IMG/VR virus record: IMGVR_UViG_3300011113_000642
Location: 1-64,000 of that record
From: a virus
Length of the DNA: 64,000 nucleotides
Direction: 5' to 3' (one strand)
In this document: piece by piece, positions 1 through 43,253 of the stretch
Position numbering within the stretch: the stretch's first letter is position 1
Layout of the letters: every line of letters starts with the position of its first letter
The notes under the pieces: model-generated
The model's database searches: none
Seen by the model: the letters and a program-made list of their open reading frames with translations, nothing else
Told to the model about the DNA's origin: nothing
Position numbers and translations under genes: made by a program

Positions 1-166
1 GGGATCTTGGTTATGAGAGAAATTATTAGAGGGGGGGGGGTCATGGGGTCCAAACAGTGATTTGGGTCCCATATAGGATTCCGGTTACCGGACGAGCTAG
101 CTCCCCCAGTCCCTCAAATTTTCTTAAATATTCTCAAAATACCTTTAAATTTCTTAAAATATTTGT

Positions 167-202
167 AAAACACTATATGCCATAAAAAATTTCCGGGCAC
201 CC
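167..202. repeat. Partial third copy of the cassette intergenic repeat
   Basis: aaaacactatatgccataaaaaatttccgggcaccc matches the first half of the copies at 289-359 and 982-1050. Confidence 0.7.
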
Positions 203-288
203 AAGCCCTTTAAAACCCCTCTAAATCGTTCTACGATTGGCTATACGGCGTTCTGTCCGGTGTTTTGGGTTCCGACCCCTTTGTGTAG

Positions 289-359
289 AAAACACCACAT
301 ACCATAAAAAAATTTTGGGCCCCCGAAGGAGCCCAAAACGTTTATTCAAAAAATTTTAA
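289..359. repeat. ~70-bp intergenic direct repeat, copy 1 (contains terminator hairpin)
   Basis: Near-identical to 982-1050 (aaaacac..at..ataaaaaattttgggcccccgaaggagcccaaaa.gtttattcaaaaattttaa). Confidence 0.9.
305..338 (-). terminator. Rho-independent terminator with cUUCGg tetraloop
   Basis: Minus strand reads ttttgggctcc-TTCG-ggggcccaaaa followed by a T-tract, downstream of ORF 367-969. Confidence 0.8.
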
Positions 360-366
360 GTTTTGT

Positions 367-969
367 TTAATCGTATGTTTTTATACCACGCTTTGCTCTG
401 CGTAGTCTTGCTTCGGCAGAAGCTACATCATATTCTTGCTGTGTTGCTGGAGCTGTTTTTTTAATTTTTGCCATCTGTTCTGCTTCTAATTCATCCAAAA
501 CGTAACCAACTGGGTCTCTTACAGCTGATGCGGCATCATAAGCAACATCAAGAGCTTTTATTGTTTTATCTTGCATGGATGGAGACATCCCCGACATTGT
601 ACGTTCGGTTCCTTTGCCTAGGGAATCCATTCTTCTTTCCCAAGCTGGGGTTGATGTTATAGCATCTGCTGCAATGTCTCCTGCCATCATTCCAACGGCA
701 GCTGCACCACCTCTGGCTAAGCCGCTTGCTAAACTTCCTGCCCTTGCTCCAATATTGTTTAATGGATTAATTGCTCCGATACCACCTTTTACTATTTGTG
801 TTTGTGCATTAAAGGGAATTGGCACTGCCCGGTCTTTAAGTATATAATCTGATCTTTTTTGCATTTTTTCGAACGTGGCAGCGGATGCTTCAAGCAATTT
901 AGTAAGATTATTTACTTTTTCTTGAAGTTGTTCTGATAAATTTTTGTAGTAATTTGTTAGGTAGTCCAT
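367..969 (-). CDS. Leader-peptide family protein 1, putative internal/ejected head protein
   Basis: N-terminus MDYLTNYYKNLSEQLQEKVNNLTKLLE is shared with two nearby ORFs; Gly/Ala-rich central segment; TATAAATA lies 5 nt upstream. Confidence 0.7.
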   Translation of the reverse strand: MDYLTNYYKNLSEQLQEKVNNLTKLLEASAATFEKMQKRSDYILKDRAVPIPFNAQTQIVKGGIGAINPLNNIGARAGSLASGLARGGAAAVGMMAGDIAADAITSTPAWERRMDSLGKGTERTMSGMSPSMQDKTIKALDVAYDAASAVRDPVGYVLDELEAEQMAKIKKTAPATQQEYDVASAEARLRRAKRGIKTYD

Positions 970-974
970 AAAAT

Positions 975-982
975 TATTTATA
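975..982 (-). promoter_or_regulatory. T4-type late promoter TATAAATA
   Basis: Exact gp55 consensus, 5 nt before the ATG at 969. Confidence 0.75.
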
Positions 983-1050
983 AAACACTATATGCTATAA
1001 AAAATTTTGGGCCCCCGAAGGAGCCCAAAAAGTTTATTCAAAAATTTTAA
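982..1050. repeat. ~70-bp intergenic direct repeat, copy 2
   Basis: Near-identical to 289-359. Confidence 0.9.
998..1030 (-). terminator. Rho-independent terminator with cUUCGg tetraloop
   Basis: Same hairpin as 305-338, downstream of ORF 1057-1650. Confidence 0.8.
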
Positions 1051-1056
1051 ATTATT

Positions 1057-1650
1057 TTATTGGCCTAGTTGTCTTCTTTTTTGAGATGCTGCAACCTCAG
1101 CTGCACTTGCAGTAGTATCGGGATCTGCGCTATCATGTACATTTGGGTTTAGATCTCTGTACCCAGCCATTCTTTGAGCATAATTTCTTTGACGAAGCTT
1201 TTTGCCTGTTCCTGGAACAGATCCACCTTTTATTGGAATATGATAATCTCGTATCACTAAATCTCCTCTGTTAACTTCCAGTGGTGGTCCTTGGTTATGC
1301 ATTGAAGCATAGATTGGATTATTTTCTACAGTTGGACGACCATCATCACTTACTGTCTCCCAGGCAAGCATTTCAACGTCTGAGTCTGAGCCAATGCCTC
1401 TAATTGTTTCCTGACCAGGAAATACAGAGAATGTTTTTTCTTTTCTGGCTCCCTTACCAAGAGGGTTTCCTTTTTTGGTTGTTTCTCTTCCTGAAATAAG
1501 AGGAACACTTTCATTGGTGTAAGGATCTATATCGGTCGGTCTCATATAAAATGTGCGTCGTTCCCTGTACTCCAATAGTTGTTCTAAATGATTAACTTTT
1601 TCTTGAAGTTGCTCGGATAAATTTTTGTAGTAGTTTGTCAGGTAATTCAT
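1057..1650 (-). CDS. Leader-peptide family protein 2, putative internal head protein
   Basis: N-terminus MNYLTNYYKNLSEQLQEKVNHLEQLLE, followed by unrelated cargo; CTAAATA lies 5 nt upstream. Confidence 0.7.
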   Translation of the reverse strand: MNYLTNYYKNLSEQLQEKVNHLEQLLEYRERRTFYMRPTDIDPYTNESVPLISGRETTKKGNPLGKGARKEKTFSVFPGQETIRGIGSDSDVEMLAWETVSDDGRPTVENNPIYASMHNQGPPLEVNRGDLVIRDYHIPIKGGSVPGTGKKLRQRNYAQRMAGYRDLNPNVHDSADPDTTASAAEVAASQKRRQLGQ

Positions 1651-1663
1651 GAAATTATTTAGT

Positions 1664-2041
1664 TTAACGAAGATTTGGATTATGATATTCTAATTTTTTT
1701 GTTTCTTTATTATAATGTCTAATGTCATGACAAGTCGGACAAAGAAATACACCTTTTTTTAATTCTTCTTTTACTTCTTCGGGAGTAGCACATTCTGTTA
1801 GTTGCTTTGTTCTTCCGCGTCTTCCTGGTCTATTTTTTTCTGTTCCAATTTCAGTATGATGAAATTTTAAAAGTCTTGGATAAGCATTCCAACCACAATC
1901 TGTACAACAGGCCGAATCCCGAATAGAATTCACCAATTTTTTAATTGGTTTTTCTTTTTTAGGTTGTTTGCTTGGTTTAGACACTAAAATAATTACGGAG
2001 TTTTCTTTTATTTCTTCACCAAAAATATTATAGTTCACCAT
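1664..2041 (-). CDS. HNH-like Zn-binding endonuclease
   Basis: CxxC (CTDC)...FHH...EELKKGVFLCPTCHDIRH pattern typical of small phage HNH proteins; TTGACT-N16-TATAAT upstream on the minus strand. Confidence 0.6.
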   Translation of the reverse strand: MVNYNIFGEEIKENSVIILVSKPSKQPKKEKPIKKLVNSIRDSACCTDCGWNAYPRLLKFHHTEIGTEKNRPGRRGRTKQLTECATPEEVKEELKKGVFLCPTCHDIRHYNKETKKLEYHNPNLR

Positions 2042-2112
2042 ATTAGCTGTTTATTATATTATCTATATTTTAAAAGTCAACAGTATGGGCTAAATATAAA
2101 AAAGGAAACAGT

Positions 2113-2277
2113 ATGCTAACAAAAATTAAAAATAGTTTGAAGAAGGTTACTAAGTTGGAATGGGTTGTTTTGGCTATTGCTGTCGTTGCTCTATGGGTTG
2201 GTTTAACTCATACCCACGGTCACAAAGGACAACACAAGGCTGAAAAGGCTTCAGAAGCCGTTGTTGAAACTAAGTAA
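2113..2277 (+). CDS. Small membrane protein, 54 aa (absent from ORF track)
   Basis: MLTKIKNSLKKVTKLEWVVLAIAVVALWVGLTHTHGHKGQHK...; AAGGA SD and CTAAATA upstream; one hydrophobic helix. Confidence 0.65.
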   Translation: MLTKIKNSLKKVTKLEWVVLAIAVVALWVGLTHTHGHKGQHKAEKASEAVVETK

Positions 2278-2291
2278 ATAACACTTTAGCG

Positions 2292-2330
2292 AAAAAAATT
2301 GGGAGCCCTGTTTGGGGCTCCCTTTTTATT
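2292..2330. terminator. Bidirectional terminator
   Basis: gggagccc-tgtttg-gggctccc flanked by A and T tracts, between convergent genes. Confidence 0.75.
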
Positions 2331-2349
2331 TTAATACATAATAATTTTT

Positions 2350-2739
2350 TCAGTAAGTTGCGTTTGAGCTATGTGGTGCAATTTGGGACATTGCTTGTCT
2401 GGTAGCTTTATATACTTCTGGATTTTCTACACCAAGTTGCATTTCAATTTCTTCAATATTTGCTCCAAGTTCTCTAGCTGATTGTGCAGCTTCTTCACCT
2501 TTTGATGCAAATATTCCAGCTTTAGCCGGATTAGTTTTAAGCAATTGTTGGGATCTTAAATTTGCACGACCAGCCAATTCTTGTTTTAATTTTTGTCTTG
2601 CACCTTGGCGGATTGCTTCTTGTTTTAATTTAGTAGGATCTCCAGATTTCATTGCAGCCTTAAGGCCAGCTTCAAGTAAATTTACTTTTTCTTGAAGTTG
2701 CTCGCAGAGATTTTTGTAATAGTTTGTTAGATAATTCAT
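2350..2739 (-). CDS. Leader-peptide family protein 3 (start reassigned to 2739)
   Basis: MNYLTNYYKNLCEQLQEKVNLLE begins at the ATG at 2739, 5 nt after TATAAATA; helical Ala/Gln/Lys-rich cargo. Confidence 0.7.
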   Translation of the reverse strand: MNYLTNYYKNLCEQLQEKVNLLEAGLKAAMKSGDPTKLKQEAIRQGARQKLKQELAGRANLRSQQLLKTNPAKAGIFASKGEEAAQSARELGANIEEIEMQLGVENPEVYKATRQAMSQIAPHSSNATY

Positions 2740-2744
2740 AAAAT

Positions 2745-2756
2745 TATTTATAAATA
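2745..2756. promoter_or_regulatory. Palindromic bidirectional late promoter TATTTATAAATA
   Basis: Gives TATAAATA on both strands, each 5 nt from an ATG (2739 minus, 2762 plus). Confidence 0.75.
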
Positions 2757-4148: not shown

Positions 4149-5183
4149 ATGATTGTCAATTACGAACCAAAATTTGATTATTGTGATGTTCTTATTGTTC
4201 CTAAAATAAGTGAAGTAAAATCAAGAAAAGATGTTTCATTAGAAGTATCTACCAAGTTTAAATGTGGTAGAGAATGGTCTGGCGTTCCTATTATGGCTGC
4301 AAATATGACCACCATCGGAACACACACCATGGCTTTGGCGCTATCTGAATATAAAATGGTAACTTGCCTCAAAAAGGGCGGAGATTATTATACGCATTTT
4401 GCAACTAGTTATCCTGATAAAGAAAAATACGTTTCTTTAAGTTTAGGATTGGATGCAGAAAGCAAATTGTTTGTTGATGCGGCATCTATAAATGATCCGA
4501 CATTTATATGTTTAGATGTGGCAAATGGTTATATGAAAGAGTTTCATCATTTTACAAAGAAAGTGAGAGATAAATGGCCAACTTCAATTTTGATTGCAGG
4601 GAATGTTGTAACCCCAGAGGGGGTAGAGGCGTTGTCACTAGCTGGCGCAGACCTCGTAAAAGTGGGAATAGGATCGGGATCGATGTGCCTGACGAGGCGA
4701 GTAGCCGGGGTGGGGTATCCCCAACTCTCCGCAGTACTAGAGTGTGCTCCAATAGCCGAAGCATTAGGTATTGGGATCGTCTCTGATGGAGGTATAATCC
4801 ATCCGGGTGATTTTGCAAAAGCATATATCGCAGGATCTGCATTTGTTATGGCAGGTGGAATGTTTTCTGGTCACGATGAATGTGGTGGAGAACTCAAACA
4901 TGGTGAGCATGGTGAAATGAAAATGATCCATTATGGAATGAGCAGCAAAACTGCAAATGAAAAATATAATGGTGGTCTTTCAGATTATCGTGCATCGGAA
5001 GGAAGAACAGTAGAAGTTTCTTACAAAGGACCGGTTAAAAATACAATTCAAGATATTTTTGGTGGATTGCGTTCTGCTTGTTCATATGTTGGTGCTTTTA
5101 ACTTGCCAGAACTCTATTCTCATGGTACACTAATTAAAGTCAATCGCACTATTAACAACATTTTTGAACACAACGAAATATGA
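4149..5183 (+). CDS. guaC: GMP reductase
   Basis: IMPDH/GMPR motifs: DVANGY, AGNVVT, KVGIGSGSMCLTR, SDGG, YGMSS, YRASEGRTV; no CBS domains. Confidence 0.9.
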   Translation: MIVNYEPKFDYCDVLIVPKISEVKSRKDVSLEVSTKFKCGREWSGVPIMAANMTTIGTHTMALALSEYKMVTCLKKGGDYYTHFATSYPDKEKYVSLSLGLDAESKLFVDAASINDPTFICLDVANGYMKEFHHFTKKVRDKWPTSILIAGNVVTPEGVEALSLAGADLVKVGIGSGSMCLTRRVAGVGYPQLSAVLECAPIAEALGIGIVSDGGIIHPGDFAKAYIAGSAFVMAGGMFSGHDECGGELKHGEHGEMKMIHYGMSSKTANEKYNGGLSDYRASEGRTVEVSYKGPVKNTIQDIFGGLRSACSYVGAFNLPELYSHGTLIKVNRTINNIFEHNEI

Positions 5184-5740
5184 ATATTTTTGTACTTGCC
5201 GAAGATGCCGTTGAGTCCGCTCGCATGATGTGTGATAAACACGTTATTAAAATGATATTGGAAAGTTGTCAGTTGCTTTCAACTGCGCACCACGTTCTTG
5301 ATGGTGACGAATTGCTAGTAAATTCTGGCAAACGTAAATATAAAACATATATTTGTACAAAGAAAAATATTTGCAAAGCAACTATGATTAATCATCCGTG
5401 TACAATTTGGACCCGGGAAACAAGAGAAAATTATATTTGGCTTTGGCGACACACCTATGCTTTGTGTGGACAATATACAGAACGTTATGGTAAAGTTCAT
5501 GCATTGCAATATATGCTTGAAAATGAACTATACGATCCTCCGGCTAATATTTCAAAAGGTAAGCTGACTCCATTTGCACAAGCAATGCCGGATCAATACA
5601 AAGATGCCAATGCCGTTGTTGCGTACCGTAAGTATTATATTAACGAGAAGGTGCGTTTTGCAAAATGGAAGAACTCACAGGTCCCAGAGTGGTTTGTGGC
5701 AAAAAACCCAGAGATTGTTGACGAGCCGCTTCCTTTTTAA
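5180..5740 (+). CDS. Pyrimidine-dimer DNA glycosylase-like (DenV-related) protein
   Basis: MNIFVL...CDKHVIKMILESCQLLSTAH...NHPCTIW...QAMPDQYK..AYRKYY pattern. Confidence 0.75.
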   Translation: MNIFVLAEDAVESARMMCDKHVIKMILESCQLLSTAHHVLDGDELLVNSGKRKYKTYICTKKNICKATMINHPCTIWTRETRENYIWLWRHTYALCGQYTERYGKVHALQYMLENELYDPPANISKGKLTPFAQAMPDQYKDANAVVAYRKYYINEKVRFAKWKNSQVPEWFVAKNPEIVDEPLPF

Positions 5741-6266
5741 GGGCGTTTGCTAAAGCATCATATCTTTTATGTATTCCAGTTTTTTGTTTAACTGATTCGT
5801 TATATTCTTTAGACTTAACATATTCATTACCAGCTTCTTCATATTTTCCTTGATTTAATAAAGATATAGCTTTTGGTGATTGTGGTAACATTCCTCTAAA
5901 ATATTCTGAAACTAATTCTCCTTGTAGTTCTGAAGAATATGTTTCTAATTTTGGAACTATTTTTTTTACTTTTGGTACTCTAACACTTACATCACGTTTT
6001 AAAAGTTTGTCAGCCTGTTCTGGTGTAAGTTTTGCTTTACCAGTTAAAACATCCGGGCTAATATTTAATTCAGCAAATATTTTTGGCGATTCTTTTGTAA
6101 CTAGATGGCCGTGGCCTATAGTATCAAATCCTTTGCTGTCTTTATAAACACTTAATATTTTTTCTTCGTTGCCAGCAGACTCGTATTCTTTAATTATTTT
6201 GCAGATACCATTAATATCGCATTGGACTTGATTTTGTTCGTTTAAAAAAAATTTGAATGATTTCAT
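5640..6266 (-). CDS. T4-lysozyme-family muramidase with a capsid-targeting-like N-terminus (start reassigned to 6266)
   Basis: E...YKDSKGFDTIGHGHL gives the E-D-T catalytic pattern; begins MKSFKFFLNE. Confidence 0.75.
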   Translation of the reverse strand: MKSFKFFLNEQNQVQCDINGICKIIKEYESAGNEEKILSVYKDSKGFDTIGHGHLVTKESPKIFAELNISPDVLTGKAKLTPEQADKLLKRDVSVRVPKVKKIVPKLETYSSELQGELVSEYFRGMLPQSPKAISLLNQGKYEEAGNEYVKSKEYNESVKQKTGIHKRYDALANALKKEAARQQSLGFLPQTTLGPVSSSILQNAPSR

Positions 6267-38796: not shown

Positions 38797-39210
38797 ATGC
38801 AAAATACCACACATTTATTGCTAAAGCATGGATTAAAATACTTGGTTTTAGAAAACCAAGATTTATTTAAGCAAAATATTACACAAGCCTTAGCAATAAA
38901 ATTGCATGAAAGTTTTGGTGAAATTAAAAAAGATGTTTGCCAAAATTTGCTTCTTTCTACGGAAAATACCGAAGCTTCTGAAGATTTAAATGAATTTGTA
39001 AGTTTTATTGAAAAATTTACTCCAGGAACTTATAAATTTAAAAATGGTTCTAGTATAAATATTTCTGAATCTGATGTGAAATACTTAAAGTGTCTTTTTG
39101 AAAATCTAAGCCCCAAAAATAGAAGTAAAATGGTTTCAGAAATTTTAAATGATGGAGCAGCATTCAAACAACACGTAATGTTTTCACAGAAAGTAAAAAA
39201 CCTATTATGA
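38797..39210 (+). CDS. Putative prohead core protein
   Basis: Lies between gp20 and gp21; helical N-terminus. Confidence 0.5.
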   Translation: MQNTTHLLLKHGLKYLVLENQDLFKQNITQALAIKLHESFGEIKKDVCQNLLLSTENTEASEDLNEFVSFIEKFTPGTYKFKNGSSINISESDVKYLKCLFENLSPKNRSKMVSEILNDGAAFKQHVMFSQKVKNLL

Positions 39211-39371
39211 AAAATAACATCCGCCAAATGATCAAAAATGTAATTGAAGAAAATGCCGTAACCTTTAAGGAGCAAACTGGCAAAGTTCTTTATACTAAAG
39301 TTGGTCAAAAACTACAAGAACAATATAAGGCCGTAGCCAAACAAGTTTTTTCTAAGAAAGAACAAGAATGA
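39207..39371 (+). CDS. Small prohead core protein (gp67-like, absent from ORF track)
   Basis: MKNNIRQMIKNVIEENAVTFKEQ...LQEQYKAVAKQVF; overlaps both neighbours via ATGA junctions. Confidence 0.6.
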   Translation: MKNNIRQMIKNVIEENAVTFKEQTGKVLYTKVGQKLQEQYKAVAKQVFSKKEQE

Positions 39372-40015
39372 AACTAATCACTGAACTTACTGAAGATATT
39401 AAGTACGTTAAAGAAAATGTTGGTAACGGTGAAAAGACCTACTTCATTGAGGGTGTTTTTATGCAATCAGGTGTAAAAAACCGCAATGGTCGTGTTTATC
39501 CACAAGGTACTCTTTTAAAAGAATGCAACAGATACATTAATGAATATGTTAACAAAGGTCGTGCTCTCGGTGAATTGAATCACCCAACTGGGCCAACCGT
39601 AAATCTGGATCGTGTATCTCACATTGTAAAAGAACTTCATGAAGATGGCCATAATGTTTATGGTAAAGCCAAAGTTCTTGACACCCCAATGGGTAGAATT
39701 GTTAAAAATCTTATTGAAGAGGGTGCTCAACTAGGCGTATCAACCCGTGGTATGGGTTCATTAAAATCGAAGGGTGGATATCAAGAAGTTCAAGAAGATT
39801 TTATGTTGGCTGCAATTGATATTGTTGCCGATCCTTCTGCACCAAATGCATTTGTAAATGGTATTATGGAAGGTCGTGAATGGATGTTTATCGATGGTAT
39901 TTGGCAAGAAAGACAAGCAGCCGAAGCCAAAAAATTAATCCGCGAATCTTCCAAAAAAGACTTAAATAAAAATATTGTAAAGGTTTTCCAAGATTACTTT
40001 AAGAAACTAGGATGA
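39368..40015 (+). CDS. gp21: Prohead protease
   Basis: MKLITE; NRNGRVYP; ALGELNHP; GVSTRGMGS; DIVADPSAP. Confidence 0.95.
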   Translation: MKLITELTEDIKYVKENVGNGEKTYFIEGVFMQSGVKNRNGRVYPQGTLLKECNRYINEYVNKGRALGELNHPTGPTVNLDRVSHIVKELHEDGHNVYGKAKVLDTPMGRIVKNLIEEGAQLGVSTRGMGSLKSKGGYQEVQEDFMLAAIDIVADPSAPNAFVNGIMEGREWMFIDGIWQERQAAEAKKLIRESSKKDLNKNIVKVFQDYFKKLG

Positions 40016-40722
40016 GTAATATTCTTCCACAACATGCCACCAAATATTTGGTAGAGTCTTTAAATAAAAGAACTACTCAAAATATTAAATTGGAACTAGC
40101 TGAGGCGTTGGGTGCAACTAAAACCCCCAAAGCAGCAACAGGCAATAGAAGTTCTGAAAGTTCTAGTGGTGGGTATGGCGTAGGTGTTGGAGAACAAGAA
40201 ACCGATACTTCTAAAAATTTTACAAACGTTTTATTTGGTTCTAAGGAAAAAGCAGTAGATCCATTAGTTGGTGCTGGATTGGCTTATGGTATTGGAAAAA
40301 CAGCAACAATTGGAGCCGATATTTTAGATAAATTCGGAGTACAGTGGTTGGGTGACGTAGCACTTAAGGGGGCTGGTGTAAAACTTCCTAGCGGAAAGGG
40401 GCCTATTGGCGATATTGGTAGGGCTTTAGCCGGCAAAGCTTTGGTGGGTATTCCGGGTGCTGTTTCAAGTTTATTGCGGCAAGTTGGTGATATTAGTGGT
40501 GCTGGTTGGGCAGAAGCTCAATTGGGAAATATTGGCCGAAGTGAAATGCAATTAGCCGCACAGGGGGCCGGATCACCGTGGACTCCCTTTGTTTTACCTG
40601 GTCAAGCTAAAGGTAAACAGCAGGGGTATGACCCAAATAAAGAAGCTGACGAAGCGATGGCAGCTGCCGAAAGAGCAGAAAAAATTAAACGATATAGAAG
40701 GCGCGGATATAATATTCCATAA
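40012..40722 (+). CDS. Gly-rich hypothetical protein inserted between gp21 and gp22
   Basis: 236 aa; Gly/Ala hydrophobic segments and a basic C-terminus. Confidence 0.65.
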   Translation: MSNILPQHATKYLVESLNKRTTQNIKLELAEALGATKTPKAATGNRSSESSSGGYGVGVGEQETDTSKNFTNVLFGSKEKAVDPLVGAGLAYGIGKTATIGADILDKFGVQWLGDVALKGAGVKLPSGKGPIGDIGRALAGKALVGIPGAVSSLLRQVGDISGAGWAEAQLGNIGRSEMQLAAQGAGSPWTPFVLPGQAKGKQQGYDPNKEADEAMAAAERAEKIKRYRRRGYNIP

Positions 40723-40762: not shown

Positions 40763-41794
40763 ATGAAAAATAGAAAAAATACCCAAATTAACGAAGAACA
40801 AGTTGCCATGACCGGATACCCAATGTCCGCTGGCGGCTCTGATAGAGATATGTCTGGTCGTGGCTCAATGATTCCACAACCAGTAGTTACTGGCACTCCA
40901 GTCACAATGACTCCTCAAATTCCAACCACCATGGCCAAAAAAACAATGGCTCCAGTTGCAGCACCAGTTGCAACTTCAAAGGAATCAGAGGAAAATGAGG
41001 AGGCCGAGGAAATAGAAAACGAGTCTGAGTCCGAAGAAACCGAAGAGGCCATCGAAACTAACGAAGAGTTGAACGCCCAATTCCGCGATTCTTTGATTTC
41101 TCTTCTTGGTGAAGACGTTGATCCATCCGTTGTCACCAAACTTGAAGCTGTTTTTGAAGCTGCTGTAACAGATCGTGTTGAGCGCACTGTTGCTCAAATT
41201 GTTGAAAGTGTAGATGGCAACGTTAAAACTTATCTTGATGAAGTCACCGAATCTCTAGTAGAAAAGGTTGATGATTATCTTGATTATGTTGTTGAAGAAT
41301 GGATGACCGAAAATGCAGTAGCTGTTGAGCAAGGTATCAAGACTCAAATTGCTGAAAACTTTATCAGTGGTCTAAAAAATCTCTTTGAAAATCACTACAT
41401 TGATGTTCCAGCAGAGAAGTACAATGTTCTTGATGAACTCTATGCACAAAATCGTGAACTAGAGACCAAACTAAATGAATCCGTCAAGAATAACATGAAT
41501 CTTAAGAAGGAAATTTCACTAACTGAATGCGCAGGCATATTTGTTGCTGAAACCCGCGATCTCGCTGATACTCAAGTAGCTAAACTTCAAGGTTTAATGG
41601 AAAACGTTTCCTTTGAAACCCCCGAAGAATATCGCGAAAAGCTCGTTGCTATTCGTGAAAATTACTTAACTCGCCCACGCCCAGCTGCCAAGGTAGCTGA
41701 GCCAGAACAAACTTTTGCTCCAGTAAAGCAAGTCCCCTCAACTCTTGTTGAGAGCTATGTTGGTGCACTAGGTAGACTTAATAAAAAAGTCTAA
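40763..41794 (+). CDS. gp22: Prohead core scaffold protein
   Basis: VFEAAV; VDDYLDYVVEEWM.EN..A.E.GIK..IAE.F..GLK.LF..HYI. Confidence 0.92.
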   Translation: MKNRKNTQINEEQVAMTGYPMSAGGSDRDMSGRGSMIPQPVVTGTPVTMTPQIPTTMAKKTMAPVAAPVATSKESEENEEAEEIENESESEETEEAIETNEELNAQFRDSLISLLGEDVDPSVVTKLEAVFEAAVTDRVERTVAQIVESVDGNVKTYLDEVTESLVEKVDDYLDYVVEEWMTENAVAVEQGIKTQIAENFISGLKNLFENHYIDVPAEKYNVLDELYAQNRELETKLNESVKNNMNLKKEISLTECAGIFVAETRDLADTQVAKLQGLMENVSFETPEEYREKLVAIRENYLTRPRPAAKVAEPEQTFAPVKQVPSTLVESYVGALGRLNKKV

Positions 41795-41843: not shown

Positions 41844-43253
41844 ATGCAATTTCAAGAAAACACACCATATGATATTCTCACCGAGAAGTGGGACCCTGTC
41901 ATTAATCACGAAGCTCTTCCCAAGATTCAAGACGATTACCGCAAGAAGGTAACCGCCGTTCTCTTGGAGAACCAAGAACAAGCTCTTCGCCAACAACACC
42001 TCATTGAGGATATGGGTGGCAATGCTAATCTTGGTGGTCCAGCAACTTCTACTGGATACAATAACGGTCAAGTTTCTGGTTACGACCCAGTTCTAATCAG
42101 CTTGATTCGTCGTTCTATGCCAAACCTAATGGCATATGATATCTGCGGCGTTCAACCAATGACCGCCCCAACCGGCCTTATCTTTGCTATGCGTGCCAAC
42201 TACCAATACGGTGGTACAGGCTACACCTATGGCAATGCTGGTTATGTCGAAGCCATGTTCCAAGAGCCACAACCATCTTACGGTGGTTCTGGTTGGACTC
42301 TAAACGCAACCTTTGCTGCTTCTAAAGGTCTTTCCGCTGGTTGGAACTATGCTTCCGGTGTAACTTCAACCGCTGCACAACTTGCTGCTCTTCGTGGTAT
42401 TCTAACCGCTGATGGTGAAGGTATCGGTAAGAGTGGTAATTATGCTAACTGGAATCAAATGGCCTTCTCAATCGACCGTGTTGCTGTCCAAGCTCGTACA
42501 CGCGCTCTAAGCAGCAACTATACTGTCGAATTGGCTCAAGACCTCAAGGCTGTTCACGGTCTCGATGCTGAAGCCGAACTCGCAAATCTTCTCAGCACCG
42601 AAATTCTTGCTGAAATTAATCGCGAGATCGTCAAGACCATCTACTACGTTGCTAAGACAGGTACTCAACAACCTGATATTCAACAAAGGGGTGTTTACGA
42701 TCTTGATATTGATTCTGATGGTCGTTGGTCTGCTGAACGCTTCCGTGGTCTCAGTTTCCAAATTGAGCGCGAATGCAATCAAATTGCCAAGGAAACCCGT
42801 CGTGGTAAGGGTAACTTCATTATCTGCGATAGCGATACCGCAGCTGCCCTCGCCATGTCTGGCTTCATGAGCCTCAGCCCAGCAATTGCTCCTCAACTAA
42901 ACGTTGATGATACTCAAAGCACATTTGCTGGTATTTTGAGTGGTAAGATCCGCGTCTACATCGATCCATATAGCCCAGCAGGATTTAACTTCTTCGTTAC
43001 TGGCTATAAGGGCGAATCGCCATATGACGCTGGTCTCTTCTACTGCCCATACGTTCCTCTCCAAATGGTTCGTGCAGTAGATCCAAATACTTTCCAACCA
43101 CGTATTGCCTTCAAGACCCGTTATGGTGTAGTTGCTAACCCATTCGTTATCAACACCACCACCGGCCAACCAGATGGTGAAACTCTCACCGCCGGCTTGA
43201 ACCACTATTACCGCTTAACTAGCGTTACCAACCTCCACGGTAACACTATCTAA
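41844..43253 (+). CDS. gp23: Major capsid protein
   Basis: DPVLISLIRRSMPNL.AYDICGVQPM..PTGLIFAMR; ELAQDLKAVHGLDAE.EL; YCPYVPLQM. Confidence 0.97.
   Translation: MQFQENTPYDILTEKWDPVINHEALPKIQDDYRKKVTAVLLENQEQALRQQHLIEDMGGNANLGGPATSTGYNNGQVSGYDPVLISLIRRSMPNLMAYDICGVQPMTAPTGLIFAMRANYQYGGTGYTYGNAGYVEAMFQEPQPSYGGSGWTLNATFAASKGLSAGWNYASGVTSTAAQLAALRGILTADGEGIGKSGNYANWNQMAFSIDRVAVQARTRALSSNYTVELAQDLKAVHGLDAEAELANLLSTEILAEINREIVKTIYYVAKTGTQQPDIQQRGVYDLDIDSDGRWSAERFRGLSFQIERECNQIAKETRRGKGNFIICDSDTAAALAMSGFMSLSPAIAPQLNVDDTQSTFAGILSGKIRVYIDPYSPAGFNFFVTGYKGESPYDAGLFYCPYVPLQMVRAVDPNTFQPRIAFKTRYGVVANPFVINTTTGQPDGETLTAGLNHYYRLTSVTNLHGNTI

Follow-up and report, generated by a model that had tools for sequence, protein, structure and literature searches.

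A widespread N-terminal leader on unrelated late proteins of uncultured T4-like phages as a probable capsid-targeting propeptide

Background

Proteins that a phage injects act ahead of any phage gene expression, and outside the T-even coliphages they are hard to recognise. In T4 the unrelated proteins IPI, IPII, IPIII and Alt have an N-terminal tag in common, the capsid-targeting sequence (CTS), which is removed by gp21 and ends in (L/I)-x-E|Ala. The tag reads MKTYQEFIAE|A in IPII and IPIII, and in IPI it is a 19-residue form ending in I-T-E|A. It is alone enough to have a protein packaged, and the injected Ip1-3 inhibit GmrSD restriction enzymes (PMC9026906; PMC3012670; PMC12373910). Each of the three T4 internal proteins inhibits host restriction enzymes specifically (PMC12373910), and the specificity of gp21 is L/I-X-E (PMC9026906).

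In phiKZ, 201phi2-1 and SPN3US a protease related to gp21 cleaves many head-internal proteins, cutting behind Glu, and the sites in the propeptides are redundant (PMC9026906). In PeSL cassettes of T4-type phages and in the T-even IP loci, orphan genes are bordered by repeated promoter/stem-loop modules, whose homology allows genes to be inserted, deleted or replaced (Repoila et al. 1994 via PMC3012670; PMC2839356).

Results and discussion

Three genes with a common start

The window, i.e. the whole stretch of DNA analysed, comprises positions 1 to 64,000 of IMGVR_UViG_3300011113_000642, an uncultured T4-like phage. The leader occurs exactly three times on this contig, in the following genes.

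367..969, minus strand: g1, leader-tagged cargo gene, ORF of 200 aa
969-889, minus strand: g1 leader, residues 1-27, predicted cut after L-L-E27|A
1057..1650, minus strand: g2, leader-tagged cargo gene, ORF of 197 aa
1650-1570, minus strand: g2 leader, residues 1-27, predicted cut after L-L-E27|Y
2350..2739, minus strand: g3, leader-tagged cargo gene, 129 aa counted from the ATG at 2739
2739-2671, minus strand: g3 leader, residues 1-23, predicted cut after L-L-E23|A

All three open with M(D/N)YLTNYYKNL(S/C)EQLQEKVN, LLE ends at residue 27, 27 and 23, respectively, and the sequences then diverge, just as an earlier reading of the sequence alone had described. That reading had named full-length homology of the three as one of the findings that would speak against it; such homology is absent, as BLASTP detected no similarity between any pair beyond the leader (E >= 0.2 throughout). 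The predicted mature parts are 173 aa with a hydrophobic Gly/Ala-rich middle in g1 (pI 9.3), 170 aa in g2 (pI 9.2) and 106 aa in g3 (pI 9.7), the last with a C-terminal tail ending in PHSSNATY.

The AF2 model of g2 has a helix at 2-30 followed by a beta-rich domain at 33-127. That of g3 is a four-helix protein with its first helix at 3-32, so that the leader helix runs on beyond the proposed cut site into the bundle, which counts against the targeting-propeptide reading set out below. Nothing above threshold was found for g1-g3 in Pfam or PHROG, and Foldseek searches of the g2 and g3 models in PDB and BFVD gave non-significant or generic helical-bundle matches only. The ESM Atlas gave low-score leads only, megablast of the locus gave no match, the tRNA search of the window found none, and g1 has no real similarity to the Gly-rich ORF at 40012-40722.

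Conservation of the leader at the peptide level

Across codons 1-20 of the three copies nine codons vary, seven of them synonymously only and two with a change of residue (D/N at 2 and S/C at 12), while the 75-nt leader repeat is 84-87% identical. The claim that the differences are mostly synonymous is thereby confirmed. Synonymous sites in the leader are saturated (pS 0.7-0.86, with Leu4 encoded by six codons), hence selection acts on the peptide, and pN/pS is 0.24 in codons 11-16 as against 0.81 in codons 23-30. A cause at the DNA level, i.e. recombination or an RNA signal only, was rejected on account of the same saturation.

The leader forms an amphipathic, heptad-patterned helix of about 22 residues, with a hydrophobic moment of 0.41-0.49 that is equalled by at most 0.75% of shuffled sequences. 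It is not hydrophobic.

Distribution in relatives

The sequence-only reading had proposed an HMM search of related phages, expecting many diverse cargos behind late promoters. Our leader profile found 734 cluster representatives (50% identity) among 1.84 billion proteins, with at least 86 cargo groups. Among the best 150 of the 734 matches nearly all are N-terminal and start from residue 1. The family also amounts to 114 clusters at 90% identity and to 68 loci on viral contigs, and related contigs carry 2-8 leader genes each. The leader is common among uncultured T4-like phages, and this distribution together with the 75-nt repeat shows that the shared start is not due to chance. In 50,697 phage records the leader had no tblastn match, and no cultured phage with the leader was found.

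The site at the end of the leader and the head genes

Among 300 leader proteins the leader ends in (L/I)-x-E in 294 and in V/M/A-x-E in the remaining six. Its length varies, the site being retained at residue 23, 27, 28 or 31. Sequence conservation ends sharply at the terminal Glu, and the following residue (P1') is Ala in 134 of the 294 (46%), against a background of 8.8%. Two or three further L-x-E sites lie in the interior, L11-S-E13 and L15-Q-E17 among them. Since (L/I)xE is fairly frequent in any Leu/Glu-rich helix, its presence in the leader is by itself weak evidence. The genes for the corresponding head proteins were located on the same contig.

39368..40015, plus strand: gp21 prohead protease (Peptidase_S77, E 4e-39), the predicted processing enzyme
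40763..41794, plus strand: gp22 scaffold protein, onto which the leader is predicted to dock
41844..43253, plus strand: gp23 major capsid protein, predicted maturation site L-I-E55|D (L-I-E at 53-55)

The L-I-E55 of gp23 aligns with the T4 gp23 cleavage site L-T-E65|A, and it is confirmed that gp21 is encoded here along with a gp23 that has a matching LIE site. The ORFs at 38797-39371 are gp67/68-like. Of the ten largest leader-bearing contigs, all of which are fragments, six encode gp21.

The cargo parts

BLAST at E 1e-4 sorted the cargos of the 300 leader proteins into 86 clusters, 60 of them singletons, and there are thus at least 86 groups that are independent by BLAST. Ordinary diverged paralogues with a slower-evolving N-terminus are scarcely credible in view of these clusters, of the lack of detectable similarity between g1, g2 and g3 past the leader, of the different predicted folds (g2 beta-rich, g3 four-helix) and of the abrupt end of conservation at the Glu, even though the real families inside cargo classes, such as that of g2, and the mosaic modules that connect some classes are in favour of such descent.

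Cargo sizes range from 50 to 450 aa, with one cargo of 482 aa that contains DUF7178. A word search for leader proteins above 350 aa gave nothing; longer ones do occur, both at the loci and among the profile matches. Twenty long cargos were compared with Pfam and PHROG, and nothing above threshold was found except DUF7178, Ca motifs and one PHROG. The Ca motifs, present in some cargos, are dockerin/EF-hand-like, and the PHROG match is a peptidase/endolysin-like domain in one cargo (PHROG 23178, E 2e-13), as in ejected proteins of other phages. The median pI of the mature parts is 8.1 and 86 of 294 fall below 6, with g1-g3 at 9.2-9.7. Inside the cargo classes there are true families, e.g. that of g2, and mosaic modules connect some of the classes. 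The g1 cargo family has about five members, and all full-length cargo homologues found for g2 bear the leader too.

Precursors of the prochlorosin type have a conserved leader, a hypervariable remainder and several copies per genome, and the genes described here resemble them in all three respects. If they were RiPP-like or secretion-type precursors, the leader would serve a modifying or export enzyme and the rest would be a hypervariable core. We hold this to be very improbable, as the cargos are of 50-450 aa with two of them modelled as folded domains, the junction is (L/I)xE|A and not Gly-Gly, and the leader lacks hydrophobicity. The neighbours of g1-g3 are an HNH nuclease, a small membrane protein, a WYL_2 protein and a dehydrogenase, with no modifying enzyme or exporter among them.

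Avoidance of the protease motif

The mature part of a protein processed in the prohead has to survive gp21, and cleavable sites are therefore expected to be missing from it. In the cargos of the 300 proteins we counted 112 (L/I)xE against 340 expected (0.33x, z -14), and with one representative per cargo cluster the ratio was 0.42x (z -6); the z-scores are inflated by the non-independence of related sequences, and the per-cluster test still holds. For (L/I)xE[ASG] only 7 were seen against 76 expected (0.09x), and 217 of the 300 cargos lack any (L/I)xE site. The control motifs (L/I)xD, (L/I)xQ, (L/I)xK and Ex(L/I) were at 1.3x and (L/I)xD[ASG] at 1.07x. The motif itself was at 1.18x in the other 101 ORFs of this phage, at 2.4x in gp22 and at 3.7x in gp21. 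The signal is family-wide, as g1-g3 alone have 2 (L/I)xE against 2.9 expected and the depletion is invisible there. A depletion so specific to the gp21 motif is to be expected only where the proteins and gp21 occupy one compartment.

This result, the weightiest of the new evidence, bears on the possibility that the leader is an uncleaved helix by which variable proteins are anchored to another virion site, be it the capsid surface, the neck or the tail. Receptor-binding and decoration proteins have conserved N-terminal anchors of that kind. A heptad-patterned amphipathic helix suits bundle formation, some cargos have dockerin/EF-hand-like Ca motifs or a lysin-like domain, many are acidic, and the genes are late. 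An external anchor nevertheless gives no cause for a 3- to 11-fold, Glu-specific avoidance of (L/I)xE, and it leaves unexplained the 46% Ala at P1' exactly where conservation stops; moreover, the leader changes in length while the site is kept. We consider an anchor unlikely.

The leader is in our opinion quite likely a capsid-targeting propeptide that acts like the T4 CTS with a different and longer sequence. The suggestion of a longer packaging tag for interchangeable cargos is supported, being consistent with every computational test that we ran: N-terminal position, peptide-level selection, the T4-type site, the presence of gp21 and gp22, the 86 or more unrelated cargo groups, and motif depletion. 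To call it a new system, as the sequence-only reading did, is an overstatement, since the principle is the known one of the T4 CTS and internal proteins with another tag; what is new is the sequence of the tag, its length and its coiled-coil character.

Proposed course of events

From these data we infer scaffold docking, cleavage, packaging and ejection as follows. Each gene would be an independent late unit, transcribed from a late promoter into a mostly leaderless mRNA and ended by a terminator of its own. The first ~22 residues may form a helix through which the protein attaches to gp22 and its partners in the scaffolding core during prohead assembly, whereby it would become enclosed by the gp23 shell. 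Activated gp21 would then cut after the Glu of the (L/I)-x-E at the leader end, and probably at the two internal sites as well. The mature cargo thus freed would remain in the head with the DNA and be ejected into the host on infection. We suggest that the cargos form a fast-changing mosaic set, probably of counter-defence, take-over or entry factors, and that the repeated terminator-promoter-leader modules might give homology for cargo swapping.

Further, we lean slightly towards a broader reading, in which head-packaged, injected proteins of an uncultured T4-like clade form a very large pool that this leader identifies; the pool would span hundreds of unrelated families and exceed the known T-even internal-protein set more than tenfold. 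The tag would there be a scaffold-mimicking coiled coil with several protease sites, accompanied by a second, C-terminal shared module in some members and by a second N-terminal leader type in some relatives. If this is true, the leader profile and motif avoidance together would list from sequence what such phages inject. The leader is a simple handle on several hundred candidate injected proteins of environmental T4-like phages, and motif avoidance in mature parts is a sequence-only test that could be extended to other phages with Glu-specific head proteases. Once a relative has been brought into culture, the tag might be of use in engineering such phages as well, as a signal that directs packaging.

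Comparison with described systems

As in T4, an N-terminal tag ending in (L/I)-x-E, often followed by Ala, is common to unrelated proteins, a gp21-type protease and a gp22 scaffold are encoded, and the genes lie in few variable loci, are dispensable-looking and change fast. The tags themselves are without sequence similarity, with only the terminal (L/I)xE|A in common, and the leader is two to three times as long (23-31 residues as against 10-19 in T4), heptad-patterned and equipped with the extra internal L-x-E. It is found with at least 86 unrelated cargo groups in 734 clusters (50%), whereas about ten Ips are reported in T-even phages. Many of the cargos are acidic or modular; the mature parts are not uniformly basic, in contrast to the T4 IPs, with those of g1-g3 on the basic side. 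The missing similarity of the tags, the greater length and the mixed charge weigh against the propeptide reading. A search of the contig's ORFs revealed no T4-like tag. No Pfam/PHROG match links g1-g3 to IPI, IPII, IPIII or Alt, and no fold match links the g2 and g3 models to them.

The phages phiKZ, 201phi2-1 and SPN3US differ in that their site is S/A-x-E, which is not avoided here ([AS]xE in cargos at 1.28x), and in that they have no single common leader sequence. Encapsulins offer an analogy of mechanism only: a short conserved terminal cargo-loading peptide directs diverse cargos into an HK97-fold shell, but the peptide is usually C-terminal and not removed, and the shell is no virion.

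Promoters, terminators and the repeated cassette

312..339, minus strand: intrinsic terminator after g1, GGGCTCC-TTCG-GGGGCCC stem and T run, repeat family D3
975..982, minus strand: T4-type late promoter box TATAAATA, 5 nt before the g1 ATG
1005..1030, minus strand: intrinsic terminator after g2, 91% identical to that of g1
1656..1663, minus strand: late promoter box ACTAAATA, 5 nt before the g2 ATG
2301..2322, no strand assigned: bidirectional terminator between g3 (minus) and a small membrane-protein ORF at 2113-2277 (plus)
2745..2752, minus strand: late promoter box TATAAATA, 5 nt before the g3 ATG
156..327, minus strand: two decayed terminator-tail/promoter modules (156-205 and 278-327) with no gene after them

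The box lies 5 nt before the ATG in all three genes, as had been pointed out, and the transcript of g1 is predicted to start at, or adjoining, the A of the ATG, i.e. to be leaderless. In 44 of 74 leader genes an NTAAATA box stands exactly 5 nt 5' of the ATG (predicted leaderless), in agreement with the late promoters anticipated for them; 17 of the other 30 have a Shine-Dalgarno sequence and a distant promoter. The spacing is no speciality of leader genes, and we rejected it as such because other late genes have the same one; it is the general layout of leaderless late genes here.

With 44 of 74 genes predicted leaderless, the first codons could matter for initiation, and the peptide might then aid expression from leaderless mRNA or, as a further role outside the virion, be an oligomerisation or host-target-binding helix of late intracellular effectors. 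Such roles are decidedly unlikely, as the same peptide is found in genes that have a Shine-Dalgarno sequence and whose promoter is distant, the saturated synonymous sites imply no RNA-level constraint, further leaderless late genes of the phage do without the leader, and the motif avoidance in cargos points to co-residence with gp21.

Terminator, promoter and leader together make up a repeated cassette boundary (84-91% identity). It resembles the PeSLs in part, as a repeated promoter/terminator module, and decayed copies persist here; it differs by its late NTAAATA box, where the cited descriptions give PeSLs early sigma70-type promoters, and by reaching about 65 nt into the coding sequence. 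The decayed modules at 156-205 and 278-327 are probably scars of lost cassettes at the contig end. The ACTAAATA box lies directly downstream of the stop codon of the HNH gene (1666-1664), and near the g3 promoter a divergent box on the plus strand serves the ORF at 2762-2968.

Leader genes on the contig

The window covers the opening 64 kb of an IMG/VR virus contig of 94,854 bp, which has 35% G+C and an estimated completeness of 52%. The phage is a T4-like myovirus whose gp23 shares only about 53% identity with the cyanophage protein and 37% with that of T4; no close relative was found among sequenced isolates. The whole contig has exactly three leader genes (g1, g2 and g3), all starting M(D/N)YLTNYYKNL(S/C)EQLQEKVN.

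Features of the leader genes and head genes
367-969, minus strand: g1, L-L-E at residue 27
1057-1650, minus strand: g2, L-L-E at residue 27
2350-2739, minus strand: g3, L-L-E at residue 23
312-339: intrinsic terminator ending g1
1005-1030: intrinsic terminator ending g2
2301-2322: bidirectional intrinsic terminator ending g3
39368-40015: gp21 prohead protease, Peptidase_S77
40763-41794: gp22 scaffold
41844-43253: gp23 major capsid protein

The sequence-only reading described a common N-terminus running to L-L-E and complete divergence thereafter, and pairwise BLASTP indeed found no similarity among g1, g2 and g3 past the leader (E >= 0.2). Nine of the first twenty codons vary, seven of them synonymously only, in line with the claim that differences in the shared DNA are mostly silent. 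The promoter box noted 5 nt before each ATG was confirmed as (T/C)TAAATA with a 5-nt spacer in all three genes.

Spread of the leader and selection on the peptide

Residues 1-40, used in a word-based search, retrieved 114 clusters of proteins (90% identity). At the DNA level, a degenerate YLTNYYKN pattern matches 68 loci in viral contigs, and many of these have it two or three times. A 33-column profile built from 72 leaders was run against 1.84 billion cluster representatives (50% identity); 734 matched at E <= 0.001, with 184 reaching <= 1e-10. Of the best 150 of these 734, nearly all align from residue 1, and in the few exceptions additional residues precede the leader's Met, perhaps because the start codon was placed too far upstream. 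On five related contigs there are between 2 and 8 leader genes apiece, spread over two or three loci, and gp21 is encoded on six of the ten largest leader-bearing contigs (all fragments, 42-76% complete). None of the cultured phages has the leader. Some relatives have a protein with two tandem copies at its N-terminus (P0115, P0116 and L074:4350-5087, minus strand).

Selection on the peptide, as had been proposed, is borne out by 73 distinct DNA copies of the leader. Synonymous sites are near saturation (pS 0.7-0.86), with six codons in use for Leu4, and pN/pS is 0.24 for codons 11-16 against 0.81 for codons 23-30; codons 3-10, being fixed by the search pattern, were excluded. These values exclude an element that acts purely at the level of DNA or RNA.

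Cargo diversity

When the parts past residue 32 of 300 non-identical proteins are grouped by single-linkage BLAST clustering, a cut-off of E 1e-4 gives 86 clusters, 60 of them singletons, and one of 1e-8 gives 103; the many diverse cargos anticipated among relatives were found. Ordinary paralogy, with homology over the full length, is made very unlikely by this clustering along with the lack of BLASTP similarity among g1-g3. Cargo lengths are 79-476 aa (median 170). Matches to Pfam or PHROG are very rare; one cargo contains a peptidase/endolysin-like domain. In its AF2 structure model g2 has a helix (2-30) that leads into a beta-rich domain (pLDDT about 80), and g3 has four helices (mean pLDDT 87); neither model matches a known fold.

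The cargos are mosaic, with modules reappearing in differing contexts; some leader proteins fuse two cargo types and others duplicate the leader. In P0248, P0250 and P0251 a g2-type cargo is joined to another cargo module, of the P0058 type, found elsewhere alone behind its own leader; such fusions indicate modular, polyprotein-like cargos. The C-terminus of g3 (2350-2379, minus strand) has the tail H-(V/S)-(T/S)-(P/N)-x-x-Y-COOH, which ends 18 of the 300 leader proteins in several cargo classes, as well as one g2-type cargo (P0243), and could be another module or signal that these proteins have in common.

Predicted protease sites and motif avoidance

T4 gp21 cleaves after the Glu of L/I-X-E (PMC9026906). 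Among the T4 internal proteins, IPII and IPIII begin MKTYQEFIAE|A; the form in IPI is 19 residues long and ends I-T-E|A. That gp21 is encoded here and that gp23 has an LIE site were both upheld, the predicted gp23 site L-I-E55 aligning with L-T-E65|A of T4. In 294 of the 300 leader proteins an (L/I)xE ends at residue 21-36 (modes 23, 27, 28 and 31), and the other six have V/M/A-x-E at the site. The first residue after the proposed cut is Ala in 134 of the 294 (background 8.8%) and A/S/G/T in 67%. Two further L-x-E motifs lie within the invariant leader segment, which brings the motif density to 8.2 per 100 aa in the leader, against 0.26 in the cargos.

Occurrence of the gp21 motif and of control motifs
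300 cargos, (L/I)xE: observed 112, expected 340, ratio 0.33 (z -14)
One representative per cluster, (L/I)xE: observed about 40, expected 96, ratio 0.42 (z -6)
300 cargos, (L/I)xE[ASG]: observed 7, expected 76, ratio 0.09
300 cargos, controls (L/I)xD, xQ, xK and Ex(L/I): ratio about 1.3
300 cargos, control (L/I)xD[ASG]: observed 75, expected 70, ratio 1.07
The phage's other 101 ORFs, (L/I)xE: observed 295, expected 251, ratio 1.18
Tail and baseplate ORFs, (L/I)xE: observed 78, expected 70, ratio 1.11
gp22 scaffold, (L/I)xE: observed 13, expected 5.4, ratio 2.4
gp21, (L/I)xE: observed 10, expected 2.7, ratio 3.7

Avoidance of the motif is the decisive computational test. No (L/I)xE site at all occurs in 217 of the 300 cargos, and most residual sites are followed by a bulky residue or Pro; it should be noted that g1-g3 alone (2 sites observed, 2.9 expected) are too few for a test. 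Such Glu-specific avoidance would be expected of proteins that have to survive beside active gp21, i.e. inside the prohead, and no other explanation for it is known to us.

The hydrophobic moment of the leader is 0.41-0.49, a level that no more than 0.75% of shuffles attain, and its hydrophobic residues, at 4, 7/8, 11, 15, 19, 22 and 25/26, follow a heptad pattern. From these two properties we infer that the leader helix may dock onto the helical scaffold. The sequence-only reading, in which the leader would be a packaging tag, longer than and different from that of the T4 internal proteins, that loads cargos into the head, is supported by computation.

In T4 the tag alone is enough for packaging, the internal proteins have only the tag in common, and Ip1-3 are injected and inhibit distinct GmrSD enzymes (PMC9026906, PMC3012670, PMC12373910). 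The principle would be the one already known from T4; the tag itself and the scale of cargo diversity differ. The leader has no sequence similarity to the T4 capsid targeting sequence (CTS), is two to three times as long, and has coiled-coil character and several predicted cleavage sites.

Between gp21 and gp22 lies an ORF of 236 aa (40012-40722, plus strand) with the sites L-V-E and L-A-E|A near its N-terminus, a Gly-rich centre and a basic C-terminal part. PHROG gave no match; the ORF may encode another core or internal protein, with a putative propeptide of its own.

Promoters and organisation of the locus

The layout of box, 5 nt and ATG is found in 44 of 74 leader genes, and a Shine-Dalgarno sequence takes its place in 17 of the remaining 30. 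In the contig 5 nt is the most frequent distance from NTAAATA to ATG, and the layout precedes nine real ORFs, among them structural genes such as that of the tail tube; it is thus a general leaderless late-gene design and not a feature of the leader system. On this evidence leaderless late mRNAs are probably a general feature of the phage. Within the window the layout also occurs at 2762, 3104, 23500 (minus strand), 27980, 30535 and 43333.

Promoter and leader stretch together form a 75-nt repeat (84-87% identity), the terminator module is repeated with 91% identity, and two decayed module copies, at 156-205 and 278-327, have no gene behind them. Apart from their late promoters, these terminator-promoter-leader repeats are similar to PeSL cassettes (PMC2839356). 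The start of the contig (1-330) lies within the variable island, adjoining the decayed terminator/promoter repeats, as does the related contig L079; the island may break assemblies, owing to repeats or strain variation.

An HNH endonuclease gene (1664-2041, minus strand; PHROG 2255, E 9e-15) sits between g3 and g2, its stop codon directly upstream of the g2 late promoter box, and could be a homing element in the island. Two plus-strand ORFs lie amid the leader genes, for a 54-aa single-pass membrane protein (2113-2277) and a 68-aa late protein (2762-2968), and their counterparts adjoin leader genes in relatives (L079:3226-3408, L075:1834-2022).

A second N-terminus in relatives

Neighbouring genes in relatives share a second N-terminus, M..NPF(N/K)D(H/Q)(L/F)N..N.YD..K(Q)I.E, which is absent from the window's contig.

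Genes with the second N-terminus
L079:4095-5064, minus strand
L077:3813-4418, minus strand
L067, about 5168-5974, plus strand

In L077 a degenerate main leader comes directly behind it in the protein, and P0245, P0248 and P0250 have an N-terminal extension of looser likeness to it ahead of the main leader. Yet another N-terminus is found at 3464-4093 of L079, on a cargo that occurs behind the main leader too.
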